Shown here: positions 13,910 to 22,369 of the stretch, one piece after another
How the letters are laid out: each line of letters opens with the position of its first letter
Numbering within the stretch: position 1 is the stretch's first letter
Assembly (NCBI GenBank): GCA_963803305.1
Contig: CAWDLT010000009.1
Span: 333,347-397,346, forward strand
Direction of reading: 5' to 3'
DNA: 64,000 bases
Origin: an uncultured bacterium
Lineage (GTDB): Bacteria > Actinomycetota > Thermoleophilia > Solirubrobacterales > 70-9
Translations under genes and position numbers: made by a program
Notes under the pieces: generated by a model
Seen by the model: the letters and a program-made list of their open reading frames with translations, nothing else
Database searches by the model: none
What the model was told of the DNA's origin: nothing

Positions 13910-14320
13910 CTAGACCCTCCGTCGCTTCCGAGGCCGGCAGCCGTTGTGCGCCTGCGGCGTGACGTCCTTGACGGTGGTCACCTGAAGCCCTGCGGCCTGG
14001 AGCGAGCGGATCGCCGTGTCGCGCCCCGAGCCAGCGCCCTTTGCATGCACCTCGACCCGCTCGAGCCCATGCTCCATCCCCTTTCGGGCCGCGGAATCGG
14101 CGGTCACCTGAGCGGCAAACGGGGTCGACTTTCGGGACCCCTTGAATCCGGCCGAGCCGGCGGACTCCCAGCAGACGACCGCGCCGTCCGTGTCGGTGAT
14201 GGTCACGATCGTGTTGTTGAAGCTGGTCTTGATGTGGGCGATCCCATAGGTGATGTTCTTCTTCACCCGACGGCGAGTGCGGCCGGCGCCTCGAGCCGAT
14301 CCCTTCTTGGGCTGGGGCAT
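13910..14320 (-). CDS. rpsK: 30S ribosomal protein S11
   Basis: Contains [18 protein letters not shown]...[14 protein letters not shown]. Confidence 0.95.
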
Positions 14321-14416
14321 CAGTGAATCACCGACTGCACACGCTGCTCGCGGCGCCGTCGTGTAGGCCTGGTGAATGCGAAAAGCTTTTGGTTGCGGCG
14401 CCGCTCCATCACGTTT
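14321..14416 (-). repeat. Family-B intergenic hairpin element (copy 1, rpsM-rpsK spacer)
   Basis: The plus strand reads atcaccgactgcacacgctgctcgcggcgccg...cggcgccgc. The motifs are shared with 14801-14901 and 22193-22369. GCGGCGCCG/CGGCGCCGC form a 9-bp stem. Confidence 0.7.
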
Positions 14417-14800
14417 CTACTTCGGCGCCGGCGCCTTGCGCCGACCGGCGACGCTCATCCGGCTCGGGCCCTTGCGGGTTCTCGCGTTCGTCTTCGTGCG
14501 CTGGCCTCGAACCGGCAGGCCGCGGCGGTGACGGTGCCCTCTATAGGCCCCGATCTCGGAGAGCCGCTTGATGTTCTGGGAGCGTTCGCGGCGAAGGTCG
14601 CCCTCGACCTCGCGGGACTCGACCGCCTCCCGCAGCTTGACGACCTCGTCGTCGGTCAGATCCTTGACGTAGGTGTTCGGGTCGACGCCCACGTCGGTGA
14701 CGATCTTGCGGGCGGTCGAGTCGCCGATCCCGTGGACGTACGTCAGCCCCACCTCGATGCGCTTGTTGACCGGGATGTTGACCCCCGCTATGCGTGCCAC
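14417..14800 (-). CDS. rpsM: 30S ribosomal protein S13
   Basis: [25 protein letters not shown], with a GTG start preceded by GGTGAT. Confidence 0.95.
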
Positions 14801-14901
14801 CTAGATCACCACCAGCACATGCTGCTCGCGGCGCCGTTGTATGCGCGCCCGATCGATTCGAAAAGTCCCTGTTTGCGGCACCGCGCCAAACATCATCCGC
14901 C
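14801..14901 (-). repeat. Family-B intergenic hairpin element (copy 2, rpmJ-rpsM spacer)
   Basis: The plus strand reads atcaccaccagcacatgctgctcgcggcgccg...cggcaccgcg. The 10-bp stem contains a G-U pair only when read as minus-strand RNA. Confidence 0.7.
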
Positions 14902-15015
14902 CTAACCCTGCCGTTGCTTGTGTCGCGGGTTCGAGCAGATGACCAGCACGACGCCGCGCCGCCGGATTATCCGGCAGCGCTCACACATCGGCTTTACGGA
15001 CGCTCGAACCTTCAC
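14902..15015 (-). CDS. rpmJ: 50S ribosomal protein L36 (zinc-ribbon form); too short for the ORF track
   Basis: Manual translation of the minus strand gives (M)[36 protein letters not shown]-stop. The GTG start has an AGGAG 7 nt upstream. Confidence 0.9.
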
Positions 15016-15025
15016 CAAAATCTCC

Positions 15026-15145
15026 TGCGGCTGCTTCGCCGCCTTGACTGCTGCTGCCGAGACACTTGTGTCTCGGCCCAAACAAACTCTTGCGGCCGCT
15101 TCGCGGCCTTACCTGCTGCTGCCGAGACACTTGTGTCTCGGCCCA
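15026..15145 (-). repeat. Family-E tandem repeat (2 x 55 nt, period 65), each unit with two GC hairpins
   Basis: Units 15026-15080 and 15091-15145 differ at ~4 positions. Each contains ccgagacacttgtgtctcgg (9-bp stem) and a ggccgc..gcggcc-type hairpin. Confidence 0.75.
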
Positions 15146-15215
15146 ACATATGTGGGTCGTATCCAATCAGTTGCCGAGAAGGCCCGCCGGCCCCAGGAAT
15201 CGGGCCCACAGGCAC

Positions 15216-15234
15216 AAAAACAGGCCTTGCGGCC
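15216..15234 (-). terminator. Weak intrinsic-terminator candidate downstream of the VIT1-like gene
   Basis: The minus strand reads GGCC-gcaa-GGCC followed by TGTTTTTG, ~40 nt after the stop at 15272. The stem is short. Confidence 0.3.
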
Positions 15235-15271
15235 GATCGAGAATGGTAGCAGGCGCCTGGTGCCTCGACGC

Positions 15272-15772
15272 CTACGCCTGGCCCACCACGACGCCGACCG
15301 CGGCGACCGTCGCGCCGGCCAGCGTCACCTGGACGAGCGACTGGGTGAGCGGAACGTGCAGGAAGCGCCGGCGGATCCAGGCGATCGCCAGCAGCTCGCA
15401 TGCGACCAGCGGGTAGGCGACCGCCAGGGCGGTGCCGACGTCGTGGATCAGGAACGGCAGCGCGTGGATCGTGCCGCCGACGAAGGTCGCAAACCCGGTG
15501 ATCACGCCCCGGCGGGCCGAGTCGCCCCGGCCCGTCAGAGTCCCGTCGTCGGACAGCGCCTCGGAGATGCCCATGCTGATCGCCGCCCCGAGCGCAGCGG
15601 CGAGCCCGACCAGGAGCGCGGCCCGCGAGCCCGCCAGGTAGGCCGAGGCGAAGATCGGGGCCAGCGTCGAGACGGTCCCGTCGATCAGCCCGATCAGGCC
15701 GGGCTGCACGACCTGAAGAAGGCGCTGCTTGTCGCTCGCCCCGCGCCAGCTCTCGAGCACGGAATCGACCAT
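15272..15772 (-). CDS. VIT1/CCC1-family (iron/manganese transporter-like) membrane protein
   Basis: 166 aa and hydrophobic. GLIDGTVSTLAPIFA and MGISEALSDDG resemble VIT-family helices. Confidence 0.6.
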   Translation of the reverse strand: MVDSVLESWRGASDKQRLLQVVQPGLIGLIDGTVSTLAPIFASAYLAGSRAALLVGLAAALGAAISMGISEALSDDGTLTGRGDSARRGVITGFATFVGGTIHALPFLIHDVGTALAVAYPLVACELLAIAWIRRRFLHVPLTQSLVQVTLAGATVAAVGVVVGQA

Positions 15773-15838
15773 CCGTCACTTATAGCAAATAGTTTAAGAT
15801 TAGGATGGCCTTAGAAGAATTAGGCTACCCTGATCGCG
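15773..15838. promoter_or_regulatory. AT-rich divergent promoter/operator region between the VIT1-like and Fur-family genes
   Basis: cttatagcaaatagtttaagattaggatggccttagaagaattagg contrasts strongly with the surrounding GC-rich DNA and has repeated AGA(A)TTAGG half-sites. No perfect Fur-box palindrome was seen. Confidence 0.45.
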
Positions 15839-16291
15839 ATGGAGACGAGCCGAGCCAAGGACACCGACACGACGTCCAGGACCTCCGAGGCGCTTCGGGC
15901 GGCGGGCTATCGGGTCACCTCGCAGCGGCTTTTGATCCATCAGACGCTGGTCGAGCTCGATCGGCACGTTGGCGCCGAGGAGCTCCTCGAAGCGGTGGGC
16001 GAGCGATTGCCGAACGTCTCCCTTCCGACCGTCTATGCGAGCCTCGACGCTCTCGAGGAGGCGGGGCTCGTCCGCCGGGTGGCGGCGGGACGGGGCCGGG
16101 CCCTCTACGACTCCCGCCCGGTCGACCACCACCACATCGTCTGCAGGCGCTGTGGCGCCGTGCGCGACCTCGATGCCCGGGTGTCGCTCGACCGCGCCAT
16201 GCATCTGGCCGCCGGGCAGGGCTTCGAAGTCGACGGCGCCGAGATCGTGGTCCACGGCCTGTGCGCCGGGTGCCGCGCCAAGAGCGGCTGA
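15839..16291 (+). CDS. Fur-family metalloregulator
   Basis: Winged-helix segment RVTSQRLLIHQTL...LPTVYASLDALEEAGLV, with metal sites HHHIVCRRCG and GLCAGC. Confidence 0.85.
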   Translation: METSRAKDTDTTSRTSEALRAAGYRVTSQRLLIHQTLVELDRHVGAEELLEAVGERLPNVSLPTVYASLDALEEAGLVRRVAAGRGRALYDSRPVDHHHIVCRRCGAVRDLDARVSLDRAMHLAAGQGFEVDGAEIVVHGLCAGCRAKSG

Positions 16292-16313
16292 CCCGGATCG
16301 GCGCCCGCGCTAC

Positions 16314-17069
16314 TCAGTCTTCGTGCCAGGGGGTGAGCACGCGAGGCCCGTCCTTGGTCACCGCGACCGTGAACTCGAAGTGCGCCGCGAGAGTTCCGTC
16401 CGCGGAGTAGACGGCCCAATTGTCGTCCCCGACCCGGACCTCGGGCTCGCCCGCGTTGACCATCGGCTCGATCGCCAGGACCATCCCGGGCGCCAGCTCC
16501 GGGCCCTTGCCCGGCTCGCCGTAGTTGGGGATCTGCGGGTCCTCGTGCATGTCGCGGCCAATCCCGTGGCCCACCAGGGAGCGGATTATCGAGAAGCCGC
16601 GCGACTCGACGTGGCGCTGGATCGCGCCTGACACGTCGCCGAGGTGGTTGCCCGGACGAGCCTCGGCGACCCCGGCCAGGAGCGCCTCCCGGGTCGCATC
16701 GAGGAGCTCTCTGGCCCCGGGATCGACTGGTCCGACCGGGACGGTCATCGCGGCGTCGGCCACCCAACCGTCCTTGGTGACCCCGACATCGAGCGAGATC
16801 ACATCGCCTCGTTGGAGCTCGTAGGCCCCGGGGATCCCGTGCACGACCATCGAGTTTGGAGAAGCGCAGATCGAGCCGGGAAATCCGCGGTAACCCTTGA
16901 ACGAGGCCTCGGCGTCCTGGGCGAGGATGAAGCGCTCGGCGGCCTCGTCGAGCTCGGCGGTCGTCACACCAGCGTGGCAATTGGAGCTGAGCATGCGAAG
17001 GCAGCGGGCCTGGATCGCTCCCGAGGCGGCCATCCGCTCGATCTGCTCGGGCGTCTTCTTGATGATCAA
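16314..17069 (-). CDS. map: Type I methionine aminopeptidase
   Basis: Contains VVHGIP, DVGVTKDGW, VGHGIGRDMHE and LAIEPM metal-ligand motifs. Confidence 0.95.
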   Translation of the reverse strand: MIIKKTPEQIERMAASGAIQARCLRMLSSNCHAGVTTAELDEAAERFILAQDAEASFKGYRGFPGSICASPNSMVVHGIPGAYELQRGDVISLDVGVTKDGWVADAAMTVPVGPVDPGARELLDATREALLAGVAEARPGNHLGDVSGAIQRHVESRGFSIIRSLVGHGIGRDMHEDPQIPNYGEPGKGPELAPGMVLAIEPMVNAGEPEVRVGDDNWAVYSADGTLAAHFEFTVAVTKDGPRVLTPWHED

Positions 17070-17740
17070 AGCTCCTCCTCCATGCGGAGGGTCGCGAGCA
17101 TCGCCCGGATCCGGTCGGTCACCTCGTCGGGGTCGAGTGAGCCGTCCACGCGGCGCAGGATCCCGCGCTCCTCGTAGTAGGAGACCAGGGGCTCGGTCTT
17201 GTCGTGGTATGTCCGCAGCCGGTTGCGGATCACGTCGGGCTTGTCGTCATCACGTATCTCGAGGCGCGCGCCGCAGATGTCGCAGATGCCGTCGTGCTTG
17301 GGCGGGTCCGACTCGACGTGGAAGATGTGGCCCTCCTTGACGCACGTCCGGCGCCCGCTGAGGCGGCGGACGACCTCGTCGTTGGCGACCTCGATCAGCA
17401 CCGCGACCGTGAGACTGCGCTCCAACTCCTGCATGCTGGAGTCGAGCGCCTCCGCCTGCGCCGTGGTCCGCGGAAAGCCGTCGAGGATGAACCCGTCGGA
17501 GGCCTCCTCGCGCGAGACTCGCTCGGCGATCAGACCGACCATCACCTCGTCGGGCACCAGGTCTCCTCGATCCATGTAGCCCTTTGCCTCGGCACCGAGC
17601 TCGGTGCCCTCGCGGACCGCCGTCCGCAGGATGTCCCCGGTCGCGTAGTAGGGGAGCCGGAAGTCCTCTTGGAGCCGCTCCCCCTGGGTTCCCTTGCCGG
17701 ACCCCGGCGGGCCGAGCAGGACGAGGTTCAGCTCAGGCAT
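17066..17740 (-). CDS. adk: Adenylate kinase
   Basis: P-loop GPPGSGKGTQ, and a LID segment with C..H...CDIC. Confidence 0.95.
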   Translation of the reverse strand: MPELNLVLLGPPGSGKGTQGERLQEDFRLPYYATGDILRTAVREGTELGAEAKGYMDRGDLVPDEVMVGLIAERVSREEASDGFILDGFPRTTAQAEALDSSMQELERSLTVAVLIEVANDEVVRRLSGRRTCVKEGHIFHVESDPPKHDGICDICGARLEIRDDDKPDVIRNRLRTYHDKTEPLVSYYEERGILRRVDGSLDPDEVTDRIRAMLATLRMEEEL

Positions 17741-18007
17741 CGGCAGAGCGCGTGGTCAAAGATCGAGCGGGACGAGGACATCAAACGACGGGGACATCGA
17801 GCGGGATGAGGACATCAAGCGGACGCGGAACACCGAACGGACGCGAGGGTCGGCACGCCGAATCGAAAGGACCCGCAAACGGGCCCAAAAACCAAACAGG
17901 TCGGTGGACGCAGGCCAATCGGCGAAGCGAGCTTAGTTTAAATCTAAGTGAGCGAGGCGATTGGCCGAGGACGCCGAGATGCGCCGGTTTGCAGGGCCCG
18001 CGCCCGT
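17741..18007 (-). repeat. Repeat-rich 267-nt secY-adk spacer (family-A-related element plus a 26-nt direct repeat)
   Basis: 17918-18005 carries ggacgcagg...gaggacgccg...cggtttgcag, the same flanks as 35521-35611. 17759-17790 and 17796-17827 repeat atcgagcggga(c/t)gaggacatcaa. Confidence 0.6.
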
Positions 18008-19279
18008 TTACTTCAGGAAGCCCTCGTAGTTGCGCATCATCAGCTGGGCCTCCAGCTGCTTCACCGTATCGAGCGCCACGCCGATCACGATCAGGATGGA
18101 GGTGCCGCCGAAGAAGAAGTTGGCCGATGTCTGGCTGATCAGGATGGTCGGCAGCGCCGCGACCGCGCCCAGATAGAGCGCCCCCGGGAACGTGAGCCTG
18201 GAGAGGATCCGATCCAGGTATTCGGCGGTAGGTCGTCCCGGTCTCACCCCAGGTATGAACCCCCCGTACTTCTTGAGGTTGTCGGCCTGGTCGACCGGGT
18301 TGAAGGTCACCGCCGTGTAGAAGTAGGTGAAGATGATGATGAAGAAGACCTCGCCCACCACGTAGGCCCACCCGTTCGGGCTGAAGAAGGCCGCGAAGTC
18401 AAGTGCCGCGGGCGTGTTCAGGAGTTGACCTATGGTCGGCGGGAAGGCCATGATCGAAGCGGCGAAGATGACGGGGATCACGCCGGCCATGTTGACCCTG
18501 AGCGGGAGGTAGGTGGACCCTCCGGTGGTCATCCGGCGACCGACGACGCGTTTCGCGTACTGGACGGGAATCCGCCGCTGGCCCTCTTGGACGAAGACGA
18601 TTCCTACGATCACGGCCAGCGCGATGAAGGGCATCATCACGACGAAGACCTGATCGGGGTTGGTCCACCACGCCTGAATGCCGTTCGGGATCCGCGACGC
18701 GATCGAGGCGAAGATCAGAAGCGAGATCCCGTTGCCGATCCCCCGCTGGGTGATCAGCTCGCCGAGCCACATCAGGAGCGTCGTGCCGGCGGTAAGCGAG
18801 ATCACGATCAAGAACAGCTTCGGGGCGGTCAGCGTCCCCACCACGCTGGTCCCGGCGGCGTTCTGGAACGACTGGAACAGGAACACGTAGCCGAGCGACT
18901 GGGCGAGCGCCAGCGCGACGGTCAGGTAGCGCGTGTACTGGGTGATCTTCTGCTGCCCGACCTCGCCCTCCTTCTGGAGCCGCTCCAGCGAGGGCACCAC
19001 CACGGTCAGCAGCTGGAGGATGATCGAGGCGGTGATGTAGGGCATGATCCCGAGCGCGAACAGGGACAGACGCGAGAGGCTTCCGCCGCTGAACAGGTTG
19101 AGGAAGCCGAGGATCGAGTTGCCCGAGAAGTTCTGCTCGATCTCCTTGACGGTGTTGATGTCGACGCCGGGTGAGGGGATGTACGCCCCGAGCCGGTAGA
19201 GCAGGAGCATCGCCGCCGTGAAGGCCAGCTTCTTTCGGATCTCGCCGACCCGGAAGGAGTTGAGGATCGTCTGGAGCAC
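18008..19279 (-). CDS. secY: Preprotein translocase subunit SecY
   Basis: 423 aa and polytopic. It starts MLQTILNSFRVGEIRKKLAFT and contains GIMPYITASII. Confidence 0.95.
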   Translation of the reverse strand: MLQTILNSFRVGEIRKKLAFTAAMLLLYRLGAYIPSPGVDINTVKEIEQNFSGNSILGFLNLFSGGSLSRLSLFALGIMPYITASIILQLLTVVVPSLERLQKEGEVGQQKITQYTRYLTVALALAQSLGYVFLFQSFQNAAGTSVVGTLTAPKLFLIVISLTAGTTLLMWLGELITQRGIGNGISLLIFASIASRIPNGIQAWWTNPDQVFVVMMPFIALAVIVGIVFVQEGQRRIPVQYAKRVVGRRMTTGGSTYLPLRVNMAGVIPVIFAASIMAFPPTIGQLLNTPAALDFAAFFSPNGWAYVVGEVFFIIIFTYFYTAVTFNPVDQADNLKKYGGFIPGVRPGRPTAEYLDRILSRLTFPGALYLGAVAALPTILISQTSANFFFGGTSILIVIGVALDTVKQLEAQLMMRNYEGFLK

Positions 19280-19926
19280 TAGGAAACACCTCCGCCGGAG
19301 GCCTCGCCTTCGGCTGCGTCTCCGGCGGGTTCGGGCTCCGGCGTGGCGGCAGGCACCTCCGCATCTACCGCGGCTTTGCCGCTAGCGCCATCGCGTCCAC
19401 CTTGGGCCGTCTTGGCAGCGGGCTCGCTGCTCTGATCGATGAGCTCGCAGCTGCCGCCGGCTTTTTCGATCTTGTCCTTGGCGGTGGCGCTGAAGGCATG
19501 GGCCTTGACGGTCAGCTTCTTGGTCAGGTCGCCCCTGGCCAGGATCTTGACCGGATGGCGGCGCTTGGCGAGCCCGGCCGCGCGCAGCGTCTCAAGGGTC
19601 ACCTCATCGCCGGCGGAGAACCGCTCCTCGAGGTCGGAGACATTGACCGGCTGGGTGTGGGTCCGGAAGGGCTCGAACGGCATCGACATCTTCTTGTGCG
19701 GGCCGCGAAGCTTCCTGGTCCGCATGTGGATCGGGTTCTGGCCGCCCTCGTAGCCGGGCTTTCTCTTGTTGCCCGACCGGGCGCCGGCGCCCTTGTGCCC
19801 GCGGCCGGAGGTCTTTCCGAGCCCGGATCCGCCGCCGCGGCCGCGGCGCCTTCGGGGATGCCGCGAGCCCGGCTTGGGGCGGATCGTGTGGAGCCCGACC
19901 TCTTCGGGATCGAGGCGGGGAGTCAT
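19279..19926 (-). CDS. rplO: 50S ribosomal protein L15 with a ~65-aa acidic C-terminal extension
   Basis: The L15 core is GRGHKGAGARSGNKRKPGYEGGQNP. The tail ends [30 protein letters not shown] and is encoded by the family-D repeat. Confidence 0.9.
   Translation of the reverse strand: MTPRLDPEEVGLHTIRPKPGSRHPRRRRGRGGGSGLGKTSGRGHKGAGARSGNKRKPGYEGGQNPIHMRTRKLRGPHKKMSMPFEPFRTHTQPVNVSDLEERFSAGDEVTLETLRAAGLAKRRHPVKILARGDLTKKLTVKAHAFSATAKDKIEKAGGSCELIDQSSEPAAKTAQGGRDGASGKAAVDAEVPAATPEPEPAGDAAEGEASGGGVS
19290..19389 (-). repeat. Family-D ~100-nt repeat, copy inside the rplO 3-prime end
   Basis: The 60-nt core 19300-19359 is identical to 20134-20193 and 24588-24647. It contains the inverted repeat CCGCCGGAG-N19-CTCCGGCGG. 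Confidence 0.85.
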
Positions 19927-20102
19927 TCGGAGCCCTCCTCGGTGACCTCGACGAGGTGACCCACGACCTTCAGCATTCCGCGCAGCTCCGGCCCGTCGGC
20001 GCGCGTGGAGGCACTGCCGATCCGGCCGAGCCTCAGGGAGCGGAGCGTCTCGCGCTGCCTGGGACTGGTTCCGTTGCTTGAGCGCACTTGTTTCACCGTC
20101 AC
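19923..20102 (-). CDS. rpmD: 50S ribosomal protein L30
   Basis: (M)TVKQVRSSNGTSPRQRETLRSLRLGRIGSASTRADGPELRGMLKVVGHLVEV. The GTG start at 20102 lies just after the rpsE stop. The upstream part of ORF 19923-20198 is the alternative frame of the repeat. Confidence 0.85.
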   Translation of the reverse strand: MTVKQVRSSNGTSPRQRETLRSLRLGRIGSASTRADGPELRGMLKVVGHLVEVTEEGSE

Positions 20103-20103
20103 G

Positions 20104-20772
20104 CTAGGCAACGGAACCCACATCTCCGCCGGAGGCCTCGCCTTCGGCTGCGTCTCCGGCGGGTTCGGGCTCCGGCGTGGCGGCAGGCACCTCGGCATCT
20201 ACCGCGGCTTCGCCGCTAGCGCCGGCGGCATTACCTTCGGTGGCCTTGTCGTTCTTCTCCAGGCCTAGGACCTGGGCGACGCTCAGGCCGCGGAGCTTGG
20301 CGACCTGCTCGGGGCGGCGCAGGCTGGTCAGGCCCTCCATCGTGGCCTTCACGAGGTTGATCGGATTCTGGGTTCCGATGCTCTTCGTGAGGACGTCTCG
20401 GATCCCGGCCAGCTCGAGCACGGCGCGAACGCCGCCGCCGGCGATCACGCCGGTTCCCGGACTGGCCGGCCGAAGGACCACGTGGCCGGCGCCGAAGCGC
20501 CCGATGATCCGGTGCGGGATCGTCTGGCCGTACATGGGAACGCGAACCAGGCTCTTGCGGGCGTTCTCGACCGCCTTCTGGATTGCCAGGGGGACCTCGC
20601 GCGCCTTGCCGTAGCCAATTCCGACCACGGAGCTCTCATCGCCGACCGCGACCAGGGCGGTGAAGGAGAAGCGCCTGCCTCCCTTGACGACCTTGGCCAC
20701 GCGGTTGATCTCGATCACTCGCTCCTGGAGGTCGAGTCCCTGCGGGCTGACTGTCTCGATGTCGTGGTTCAT
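20104..20772 (-). CDS. rpsE: 30S ribosomal protein S5 with a ~55-aa C-terminal extension
   Basis: The S5 core is [24 protein letters not shown]. The tail is [34 protein letters not shown]. Confidence 0.9.
20124..20223 (-). repeat. Family-D ~100-nt repeat, copy inside the rpsE 3-prime end
   Basis: It differs from the rplO copy at about 2 of 100 positions by eye. Confidence 0.85.
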
Positions 20773-20796
20773 GCGCGGTCGGGTGACGTTAGCGAC

Positions 20797-21150
20797 TCAG
20801 AATGAAAGCCCGCCCTCGCGGGCGCTGTCGGCGAGCGCCTTGATGCGACCGTGGTACTGATAGCCACCGCGGTCGAAGACGCACGCCTCGATCCCCGCCT
20901 CCTTGGCGCGCGCGGCGATCAGCTCGCCGGCTCGCTTCGCCTGTTCGGTGGCCTTCAGCTTCCGCATCTCGGGCTCGGTCCAGGAGACCGCGGCCAGGGT
21001 GCGCGCCGCATCGTCGTCGATCAGCTGCACGAACAGGCCCCTGTTGGATCGGAAGACGGAGAGGCGGGGACGGGCCGCGCTGCCGCGCACCTTCGCCCGT
21101 ACACGGCGACGGCGGCGGAGTCGACGCTCCTGTCTGGTCATCACGGTCAT
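20797..21150 (-). CDS. rplR: 50S ribosomal protein L18
   Basis: [46 protein letters not shown]. The longer ORF to 21843 is a read-through artefact overlapping rplF. Confidence 0.9.
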
Positions 21151-21200
21151 CGGGGATCCTCGCCGGCGGGTCGAGGCGGGTTGGGGGCGGATCGGCTCAC

Positions 21201-21734
21201 CTAGGCCCTCTTTCCGACCTTGCGCCGCACGTGCTCGCCCTCGTAGCGGACTCCCTTGCCCTTGTAGGGCTCCGGCGGCCTGGTTCGGCGAATCCTGGCG
21301 GCGATCTCGCCGACCAGTTGCTTGTCGATGCCCCGCACGATGACCTGGGTCGGCGCCGGCACCTCGAACTCGATTCCTTCCGGGGCGGCGACCGCGATGG
21401 GGTGCGAGTAGCCGACCGCAAGCTCCAGCACCCTGCCCTGCAGGCGCGCCCTGTAACCCACTCCCTGGATCTCGAGCCGCTTCTCGTATCCCTGGGTGAC
21501 GCCCTCGACCATGTTCGCGATCAGGCTGCGCGTGAGCCCGTGGAGCGCTCGATGCTCGCCACGATCGCTCGGGCGCTCCACGGTGAGGACGCCGTCCGAC
21601 TCGACCACCTTCATGTCGCGACTCACCGACTGGCTCAGCTCGCCCCGGGGTCCCTTGACCGAGACGAGCGCGGGCTCGACGTCGACGGTGACCCCGTCGG
21701 GGATCGTGATTGGCTTTCGTCCGATTCGGCTCAT
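21201..21734 (-). CDS. rplF: 50S ribosomal protein L6
   Basis: Starts [19 protein letters not shown] and contains GYSHPI. Confidence 0.95.
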
Positions 21735-21790
21735 CTCTTCTCAGTGGCCTGCGCCTCGGGTCGGGGTGGCCCGATCCGAGCGTGGCCCGG

Positions 21791-22186
21791 TCACCATACG
21801 TAGGCGACCACCTCGCCTCCCACTCCCTGCCGTCGAGCGTCATGCCCGGTCATCACCCCGGTCGAGGTGCTCAGGATCGCGGTCCCCATGCCGCCCATCA
21901 CGCGGGGGATCTCCCCGTGAGCCGCGTAGCGGCGGCGACCCGGACGCGAGATCCGCTCCAGGCCACTGATCACCGATCGGCGGCCGTCGGTGTACTTGAG
22001 CTTGATCTGGATCACCTCGCCGACCGCGCCAGGCTCGATCGCGAAGCCGCTGATGTAGCCCTGCTGATCGAGGATGCGGGTGATCTCCTTTTTGAGGCGA
22101 GAGGCGGGGATCTCCACATCGGAGTGCTGCGCGGCGATCGCGTTTCGAACCCGCGTCAGGTAGTCAGAGATTGGATCGGTGAGCAT
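21791..22186 (-). CDS. rpsH: 30S ribosomal protein S8
   Basis: Starts [16 protein letters not shown]. The ATG at 22186 lies 6 nt after GGTGAT, whereas the TTG at 22192 used by the ORF track has no spacing to the SD. Confidence 0.9.
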
Positions 22187-22192
22187 CGTCAA

Positions 22193-22369
22193 ATCACCAA
22201 CTGCACATGCTGGTCGCGGCGCCGTTGCGTACGCACATCGCCTCTTTCATAGTCTCTGGTTTCGGCACCGCGCAACATCTCCAGCTACACATGCTGCTCG
22301 CGGCGCCGTTGCGTACGCATGTCGCCTCTATCGTGGTTTCTGGTTGCGGCACCGCGCATCAATCCTTGT
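22193..22369 (-). repeat. Family-B intergenic hairpin element, two tandem copies (rpsN-rpsH spacer)
   Basis: Each of 22193-22280 and 22281-22369 contains cacatgctg(g/c)tcgcggcgccgttgcgtacgca...ggtt(t/g)cggcaccgcgca. Confidence 0.75.

Follow-up and report, generated by a model that had tools for sequence, protein, structure and literature searches.

Family B, a short hairpin repeat, occurs in the intercistronic spacers directly upstream of rpsM, rpsK and rpsH within a 64-kb stretch (hereafter the window) of contig CAWDLT010000009.1, assembled from an uncultured member of the Solirubrobacterales. Its presence in the alpha and spc ribosomal protein operons raises the question of whether the repeat regulates these genes, as was suggested in a first-pass annotation of the window, or whether its position between essential genes has some other basis. 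The analysis presented below indicates that family B is probably a dispersed, non-coding intercistronic repeat of one uncultured Solirubrobacterales genus, similar in kind to the interspersed repetitive units of mycobacteria (MIRUs), in which a relay open reading frame (ORF) and a Shine-Dalgarno (SD) sequence would hand ribosomes on to the following gene.

Family B is a dispersed intercistronic repeat

The family B unit of approximately 88 nt is composed of a 10-bp stem, a variable loop of approximately 40 nt, and a conserved tail of approximately 22 nt which ends in GGTGAT. All four copies in the window lie on the minus strand in the sense orientation of the mRNA, with one copy in each of the rpmJ/rpsM and rpsM/rpsK spacers and two copies, head to tail, in the rpsN/rpsH spacer (Table 1); the products of the flanking genes were identified by Pfam as L36, S13, S11, S14, and S8. 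The 21-mer CGGCGCCGCGAGCAGCRTGTG, which covers the conserved 3′ arm and tail, was matched four times at no more than one mismatch, against 0.04 matches expected from shuffled sequences. In an alignment including copies from relatives, the stem arms correspond to CGCGGUGCCG and CGGCGCCGCG and contain one U·G pair.

These data confirm the four ribosomal sites listed in the first-pass annotation, as well as its description of a conserved outer stem enclosing a variable loop. The sequence which it described as common to all copies is upheld overall, with the exceptions that GAGCGG stands in place of GCGSGG in the rpsK-upstream copy and that GCCGAAA and GCGACCAGC are found in the proximal rpsH copy. 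Similarly, GGTGAT is followed by the start codon in three of the copies, while the distal rpsH copy has GGAGAT as its terminal motif and leads into the second repeat unit instead of a gene start.

The four ribosomal copies represent just over half of the family in this genome, as a profile search and a covariance-model (CM) search of the 2.99-Mb assembly (coded G000 among its congeners) recovered exactly seven copies, weaker model matches (E > 0.01), which fall inside coding sequence, being discarded. The three copies beyond the window are located at hypD/hypE, at nuoK/nuoL, and between a small ORF and kdpF, all in the sense orientation. Among 41 congeneric Solirubrobacterales genomes, 25 carry the family, at 0 to 13 copies per genome, and at least 18 different operon junctions are occupied. 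Non-ribosomal junctions include squalene synthase/FAD oxidoreductase, lysA-like/hom, hom/PALP enzyme, hutH/hutU, nuoF/nuoG, cydA/cydB, and ABC permease/ATPase, and copies are accordingly found before hom, thrC-like, hutU, nuoG, cydB, and ABC genes. Sister genera harbor few copies, in the short form only (see below), and matches in two further families of the order (f4 and f5) lie within coding sequence and were discarded. When named genomes were scanned with an exact pattern, most matches proved to be chance 20-mers from G+C-rich genomes; approximately six loci were real, and true copies in named records were confined to metagenome-assembled genomes of uncultured Solirubrobacterales or Actinomycetota.

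Copy number and position vary between related genomes. The rpsN/rpsH spacer contains two units in G000, one in each of G006, G049, G017, and G023, and none elsewhere, while two units are present at rpmJ/rpsM in G046, and G011, G044, and G008 carry family B between rpsH and rplF rather than before rpsH. Orthologous copies are kept across the close species G000, G006, and G049.

Units sit at overlapping stop and start codons

Gene orientation around each copy was called from the difference in G+C content between third and second codon positions (GC3-GC2) combined with a stop penalty. In 42 of 44 long copies, a sense ORF has its stop codon at the 5′ edge, between −18 and +3 nt relative to the model start, and in 40 the downstream gene is sense-oriented. 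The orthologous ribosomal spacers of most congeners are tiny and element-free: the empty rpmJ/rpsM site, CTGATGGC, has its stop codon overlapping the start codon in eight congeners, and the empty rpsM/rpsK site consists of TAG followed by 12 to 20 nt containing GGAGG. At nuoK/nuoL, the empty form ...GG(G/A/T)TGAGCGCC... was found in 27 of 30 congeners, and it is exactly at this overlap that G000 and G049 carry the element, with TGA on either side. The hypD/hypE junction is filled in G000 only, its empty form being GTGTGAGCGCC or GTGTGAGGCGTG. The occurrence of a stop/start overlap at empty sites had been predicted beforehand, and this prediction was borne out.

Alignment of the 44 long copies revealed a junction motif on both sides of the unit, its 5′ form being N-TGA-GC and its 3′ form R-TGA-GC in most non-ribosomal copies, and both being TGATG in ribosomal copies. 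By comparison of filled and empty sites, the units are shown to sit at joints of co-directional genes with overlapping stop and start codons (GTGA, ATGA, or TGATG). Placement relative to start codons is not random, and it reflects insertion at stop/start overlaps in any operon rather than ribosomal regulation. Remnants were also encountered, with the tail alone being present in G016 and G023 and the 3′ arm having been lost in G049, and these tail-only and arm-less forms point to decay.

A putative relay reading frame and an SD sequence bridge the junction

A mini-ORF of 25 to 39 codons is present in 39 of 42 long copies, starting at or just after the upstream stop codon and ending no more than a few nucleotides away from the start codon of the following gene. 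Where the nearest in-frame start is taken, 29 of these 39 mini-ORFs overlap the downstream start, 23 of them by 4 nt and 6 in the form TGATG or TAGTG. Altered sequences were put through the same search procedure: shuffling of the loop (300 trials) yielded a mean of 21.7 overlaps (maximum, 28) and a mean of 30.5 close couplings, compared with 29 and 39, respectively, among the 39 observed, while a loop frameshift of 1 to 2 nt yielded means of 2.8 to 10.8 overlaps (maximum, 13) and of 15 to 17 close couplings. The three sense frames are open across the span in 39, 3, and 24 of the 39 copies, that of the mini-ORF alone being open in every case. Differences between orthologous copies are spread evenly across codon positions (38, 43, and 31), which indicates that the peptide is not conserved or selected and that the frame and its openness alone are kept.

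The tail sequence GGUGAU(C) is complementary to the 16S rRNA 3′ end, GGAUCACCUCCUU, and is mostly positioned 7 to 9 nt before the downstream start, in agreement with the earlier designation of GGTGAT as an SD sequence. The element ends in a genuine SD sequence and probably bears on the translation of the downstream cistron. To this extent, and in view of the sense orientation and the stem, the suggestion that family B modulates downstream translation is retained, whereas such an effect would not be specific to the alpha and spc operons.

Each unit supplies a start codon at or just after the upstream stop, a stem-loop, and a tail whose SD sequence lies 7 to 9 nt before the downstream start. It is proposed that a ribosome which reaches the end of the upstream gene would already have melted the 5′ arm and would then re-initiate on the relay ORF, translate through the hairpin, and, after termination at or beside the start codon of the following gene, re-initiate there; the SD sequence in the tail would also permit direct initiation. 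Insertion would consequently leave translational coupling and stoichiometry unbroken, which would explain its tolerance inside the essential alpha and spc operons, and family B appears to persist between essential genes because of its relay frame and ribosome-binding site. The family is presumed to spread as a non-autonomous mobile element which duplicates 3 to 8 nt of its target. Both the translation of the mini-ORF, with the ensuing ribosome relay, and the mobility of the family are inferred by us from sequence features.

A number of points weigh against this proposal. The apparent duplication at the junctions amounts to only 3 to 8 nt and overlaps sequence which selection would need to retain in order to keep both genes intact, and the family could be associated with no transposase or other gene for mobility. 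At 70% G+C, open frames are frequent and, because shuffled loops still give about 22 overlaps among 39 copies, openness by itself is weak evidence; the frame signal is, moreover, partly inherited from a master copy, the copies not being independent. The script selects the nearest in-frame start, and for the rpsH copies the likelier ATG is situated 5 nt past the stop, without overlap. Finally, the relay model leaves the need for a conserved hairpin unexplained.

Features of the copies in the window

The positions of the four copies and of their component parts are provided in Table 1. Single-sequence folding of the window spacers was no better than that of dinucleotide shuffles (z-scores of −0.01 to +0.85). 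A terminator scan detected no intrinsic terminator at any copy, the stem being followed by GAGCAGCAUGUGC with no U run, and a promoter scan returned no match.

Table 1. Coordinates of family B copies and associated features in the 64-kb window
Feature	Position	Strand	Score or remark
Family B copy, rpmJ/rpsM spacer	14801..14901	-	CM 99.1 bits
rpmJ stop codon	14902-14904	-	TAG
rpsM start codon	14798-14800	-	GTG
5′ stem arm, rpsM-upstream copy	14876..14885	-	CGCGGUGCCG
3′ stem arm, rpsM-upstream copy	14827..14836	-	CGGCGCCGCG
Relay mini-ORF, rpsM-upstream copy	14801..14896	-	31 codons (MMFGAVPQTGTFRIDRARIQRRREQHVLVVI, then stop); TAG directly abuts rpsM GTG
SD, rpsM-upstream copy	14805-14810	-	GGTGAT
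Family B copy, rpsM/rpsK spacer	14320..14416	-	CM 83 bits
Stem arms, rpsK-upstream copy	14396-14405 and 14349-14358	-	
SD, rpsK-upstream copy	14327-14332	-	GGTGAT
rpsM stop codon	14417-14419	-	TAG
Relay mini-ORF, rpsK-upstream copy	14320..14412	-	30 codons; TGA overlaps rpsK ATG (TGATG)
rpsK start codon	14318-14320	-	ATG
Distal tandem unit, rpsN/rpsH spacer	22281..22369	-	CM 86.6 bits
Stem arms, distal rpsH unit	22347-22356 and 22299-22308	-	
S14 gene stop codon	22370-22372	-	TAA
Mini-ORF, distal rpsH unit	22285-22359	-	24 codons; ends in TAG
Proximal tandem unit, rpsN/rpsH spacer	22187..22280	-	CM 92.8 bits
Stem arms, proximal rpsH unit	22263-22272 and 22215-22224	-	
SD, proximal rpsH unit	22193-22198	-	GGTGAT
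Mini-ORF, proximal rpsH unit	22189-22278	-	29 codons; TGA 2 nt before rpsH ATG
rpsH start codon	22184-22186	-	ATG

Conservation of the stem and alternative origins of the repeat

Across 74 copies, in which the short and diverged subfamilies were included, 95.8% of stem cells pair and five pairs exhibit changes on both sides, whereas pairing falls to 24 to 64% in controls with slid partners. Pairing and compensatory changes, when set against these controls, indicate that the hairpin is maintained. RNAalifold detected no covariation among the first 14 copies, such a signal appearing only once diverged subfamilies were added, and copies from sister genera contribute further compensatory changes. 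The loop measures approximately 40 nt in long forms and 2 to 4 nt in short forms. In G003, a tandem array of 51-nt units belonging to a diverged subfamily was observed (L040:1450-1551), the stem of which, GCACGATGCC/GGCATCGTG, is two compensatory pairs removed from the consensus, with U·G replaced by U-A.

The U-G pair of the stem, which is present in three of the four window copies and in 13 of the 14 copies of the first alignment, had been taken as strand-specific evidence of function as RNA. This argument does not hold, as 49 of 58 G·U cells belong to a single inherited pair (13-72, elsewhere C-G or U-A), and G·U and A·C are equally frequent (nine cells each) at the other nine stem pairs. 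The pairing data appear to fit an RNA-level and a DNA-level hairpin alike.

Another possibility is that family B, though mobile in origin, is a co-opted RNA module whose hairpin has been kept for use in the mRNA, be it to impose strict dependence of the downstream gene on upstream translation, to provide an RNase III/E processing site, or to act as a stabilizer setting differential segment stability. Such a hairpin function in coupling, processing, or stability is possible, and we consider it rather unlikely. It would accord with the conservation of the stem, with compensatory changes, over subfamilies and genera, with the retention of orthologous copies in the close species noted above, and with the start of the mini-ORF abutting the foot of the stem, where de novo initiation should be hindered. 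Conservation of the stem would, however, be equally expected if a DNA or RNA hairpin were needed for propagation, and the patchy presence of the repeat even among close relatives, together with the decay remnants, argues against a retained function.

A classical miniature inverted-repeat transposable element (MITE) left behind by a DDE insertion sequence would display stem arms as terminal inverted repeats and the repeated junction as a target site duplication, with the relay ORF representing an accident of G+C-rich sequence filtered by selection. The 10-nt inverted repeat, the direct repeats of 3 to 8 nt at the junctions, and the differences in copy number between species are compatible with this origin, yet it is improbable given that the 3′ arm is internal, being followed by the conserved 22-nt tail of the repeat, and that short forms keep this tail with almost no loop. 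Furthermore, no long copy was located in neutral intergenic DNA or in antisense, contrary to what random DDE insertion would produce, and a non-exhaustive search did not find a parent insertion sequence.

Regulation of the ribosomal operons themselves, through an operator in the mRNA to which a ribosomal protein binds or through a structure tuning initiation or stability specifically in the alpha and spc operons, is very improbable and has already been largely refuted. Four of the seven genomic copies are indeed found in ribosomal operons, immediately ahead of start codons, a sub-threshold Rfam Alpha_RBS match falls at the right place, and the Escherichia coli alpha leader likewise forms, by alignment, a stem of approximately 10 bp closing a loop of approximately 30 nt. 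The first-pass annotation had, however, recommended a check for copies before non-ribosomal genes, and these were found at hypE, nuoL, and kdpF, in addition to at least 14 other non-ribosomal junctions in congeners. The element is also absent from the orthologous spacers of most congeners, which is not expected of a conserved autoregulatory leader; no strand-specific pairing signal extends past the one inherited pair, and folding z-scores are about 0. At gathering thresholds, Rfam gave no match at the copies, and permissive thresholds yielded Alpha_RBS only, at 21.9 bits against a gathering cut-off of 38, with controls scoring 16.9 at the empty site of G004 and 20 in G006 over a span without the hairpin. 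Identity with Alpha_RBS was rejected, its signal being attributable to a generic stem plus homology of the N-terminal codons of rpsM. Whether or not a leader is present, rpsM gave sub-threshold matches of 17 to 24 bits in all genomes tested (window 14768-14888; L205, L194, L199, and L186); the conserved initial codons of rpsM are part of the model, and Alpha_RBS constitutes a trap in leader annotation.

Finally, derivation from a REP/RAYT or IS200/IS605 hairpin, which a Y1 transposase would propagate in single-stranded form and whose orientation would follow the direction of replication, is scarcely credible despite the imperfect palindrome with its conserved T·G mismatch and adjacent conserved tail and the strict orientation bias, as Pfam Y1_Tnp (PF01797) was detected in none of the 25 element-bearing genomes (and in one of the 41 congeners, an element-free genome, with control genomes positive), copies are single or in direct tandem with no inverted REPIN pairs, and orientation changes +, −, + in the space of 380 kb on a single contig, always matching gene direction; GC skew on the contig is too weak to give the direction of replication.

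Other inserts and a short subfamily

In this genus, ribosomal spacers are hotspots of small insertions. The rpsH/rplF spacer (window 21735-21790; L221, L234, L239, and L241 to L243) harbors, in different species, unrelated hairpin inserts, at least four in number, one of which, of approximately 58 nt, is shared by G000, G006, and G049. A different insert of approximately 100 nt, unrelated in sequence to family B, occupies rpmJ/rpsM in G055 and G009 (L189 and L191). Outside the ribosomal operons, the nuoK/nuoL junction of G048 (L264), which family B fills in G000, harbors an unrelated hairpin insert of approximately 85 nt with ATGAG at both ends and a 30-codon ORF overlapping the nuoK stop and the nuoL start. 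The G048 insert represents a second sequence family with the same relay architecture.

A short subfamily of approximately 52 nt is present in many congeners (L034 to L039 and L162 to L184) and consists of a tight hairpin, GGCCGGTGCCG-TA-CGGCGCCGGC, followed by the same tail. It is mostly antisense to the adjacent gene, with 27 of 38 copies lying immediately next to a long ORF at its start. Read in the direction of the gene, it specifies a 14-codon upstream ORF (uORF; ATG AAC GGC ACA TGC ... GCC TAG), which ends 5 to 8 nt before the gene start in 22 of 38 copies; this uORF may be leaderless, as no SD sequence precedes its ATG. In G169, which belongs to a sister genus, a short copy whose stem is compensated (L296:1501-1552) is apparently inserted in frame within an Lhr-like helicase gene (...LRAPLRGIG[ANVRARRSTATRAAGGIGVS]VGLRTGDT...), a situation which resembles that of Rickettsia palindromic elements. 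Orthologous short copies in G010, G056, and G018 (L037, L038, and L043) are positioned directly beside a LexA-box-like palindrome, ACGAACACATGTTCGT.

Implications

A broader and, in our opinion, doubtful reading holds that family B and at least one unrelated family, that at nuoK/nuoL in G048, form a class of non-autonomous mobile elements, all obligately equipped with a hairpin, an SD sequence, and a relay ORF locked in frame, which specifically target and duplicate coupled stop/start overlaps (RTGA or TGATG) and rewire coupling. If this were true, coupling strength, and hence subunit stoichiometry, would be rewired in essential operons, and the hairpin would serve as a valve through which the downstream cistron is strictly tied to translation of the upstream one.

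The family carries a warning for annotation: repeats before ribosomal genes may be mistaken for ribosomal leaders, and sub-threshold Alpha_RBS matches can derive from rpsM coding homology alone.

Comparison with known systems

The leader of the E. coli alpha operon (RF00140), the operator of S4, resembles family B in that one copy of the latter is likewise positioned just upstream of rpsM, where a G+C-rich stem of approximately 10 bp closes a loop of 30 to 40 nt and is followed by an SD sequence and GUG. The two differ in that the family B score lies below the cut-off and reflects mostly rpsM coding homology, and in that family B is also found at non-ribosomal junctions and, in most congeners, does not precede rpsM.

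The hairpin repeats ERIC/IRU, Correia (NEMIS), RUP/BOX, and REP can affect mRNA processing or stability; they are not known to be characteristically oriented along operons or to contain bridging ORFs fused to flanking stop and start codons. Among their recognized partners or targets are RAYT in the case of REP and TA in the case of Correia, neither of which applies to family B. They represent small non-coding hairpin repeats of transcribed intergenic regions (reviews by Delihas).

A functional parallel is offered by the synthetic "bicistronic design", in which a short leader ORF ends on the start of the target gene (cited in PMC12548453). There, as proposed for family B, the leader ORF delivers ribosomes and melts local structure; the design is engineered, whereas family B is natural, repeated, and apparently self-propagating. 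Family B and similar inserts would thus represent natural counterparts of the bicistronic design and a comparative system for the tolerance of essential operons to spacers, structure, and re-initiation.

The closest likeness is to the MIRUs, the comparison being one of described features, not of sequence, with the features of Supply et al. (1997) taken via two reviews (PMC12548453 and PMC4473831). MIRUs are intergenic repeats without dyad symmetry, with small ORFs that run in the direction of the contiguous ORFs and overlap them (PMC4473831); apparently mobile, they insert at start codons and carry an internal ORF coupled at −4 nt, a spacing which minimizes the impact on expression (PMC12548453). 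As with these repeats of 40 to 100 nt, dispersed in actinobacterial operon spacers, family B is found at 18 or more junctions, follows the orientation of its flanking genes (42 of 44 copies upstream and 40 of 44 downstream), contains a small ORF overlapping the neighboring stop and start (39 of 42 long copies), and varies between single and tandem copies among close relatives (at rpsN/rpsH and rpmJ/rpsM); both are thought to be tolerated because coupling is preserved. The differences lie in the conserved 10-bp stem of family B, with its compensatory changes, against the lack of dyad symmetry in MIRUs; in the host, Solirubrobacterales (Thermoleophilia) as opposed to Mycobacterium; and in the short antisense subfamily at gene 5′ ends. 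As all of the functional features are shared, the dyad symmetry departs from the MIRU description, and the host belongs to another class of Actinomycetota, family B would work like a MIRU without being one. It would extend to a deep-branching actinobacterial class, past the mycobacteria, the principle that a repeat survives in operons by means of its own relay frame, adding clean evidence from empty sites that the overlap of stop and start codons is itself the target, a conserved hairpin absent from MIRUs, and the convergence of several unrelated families of one genus on a shared design.

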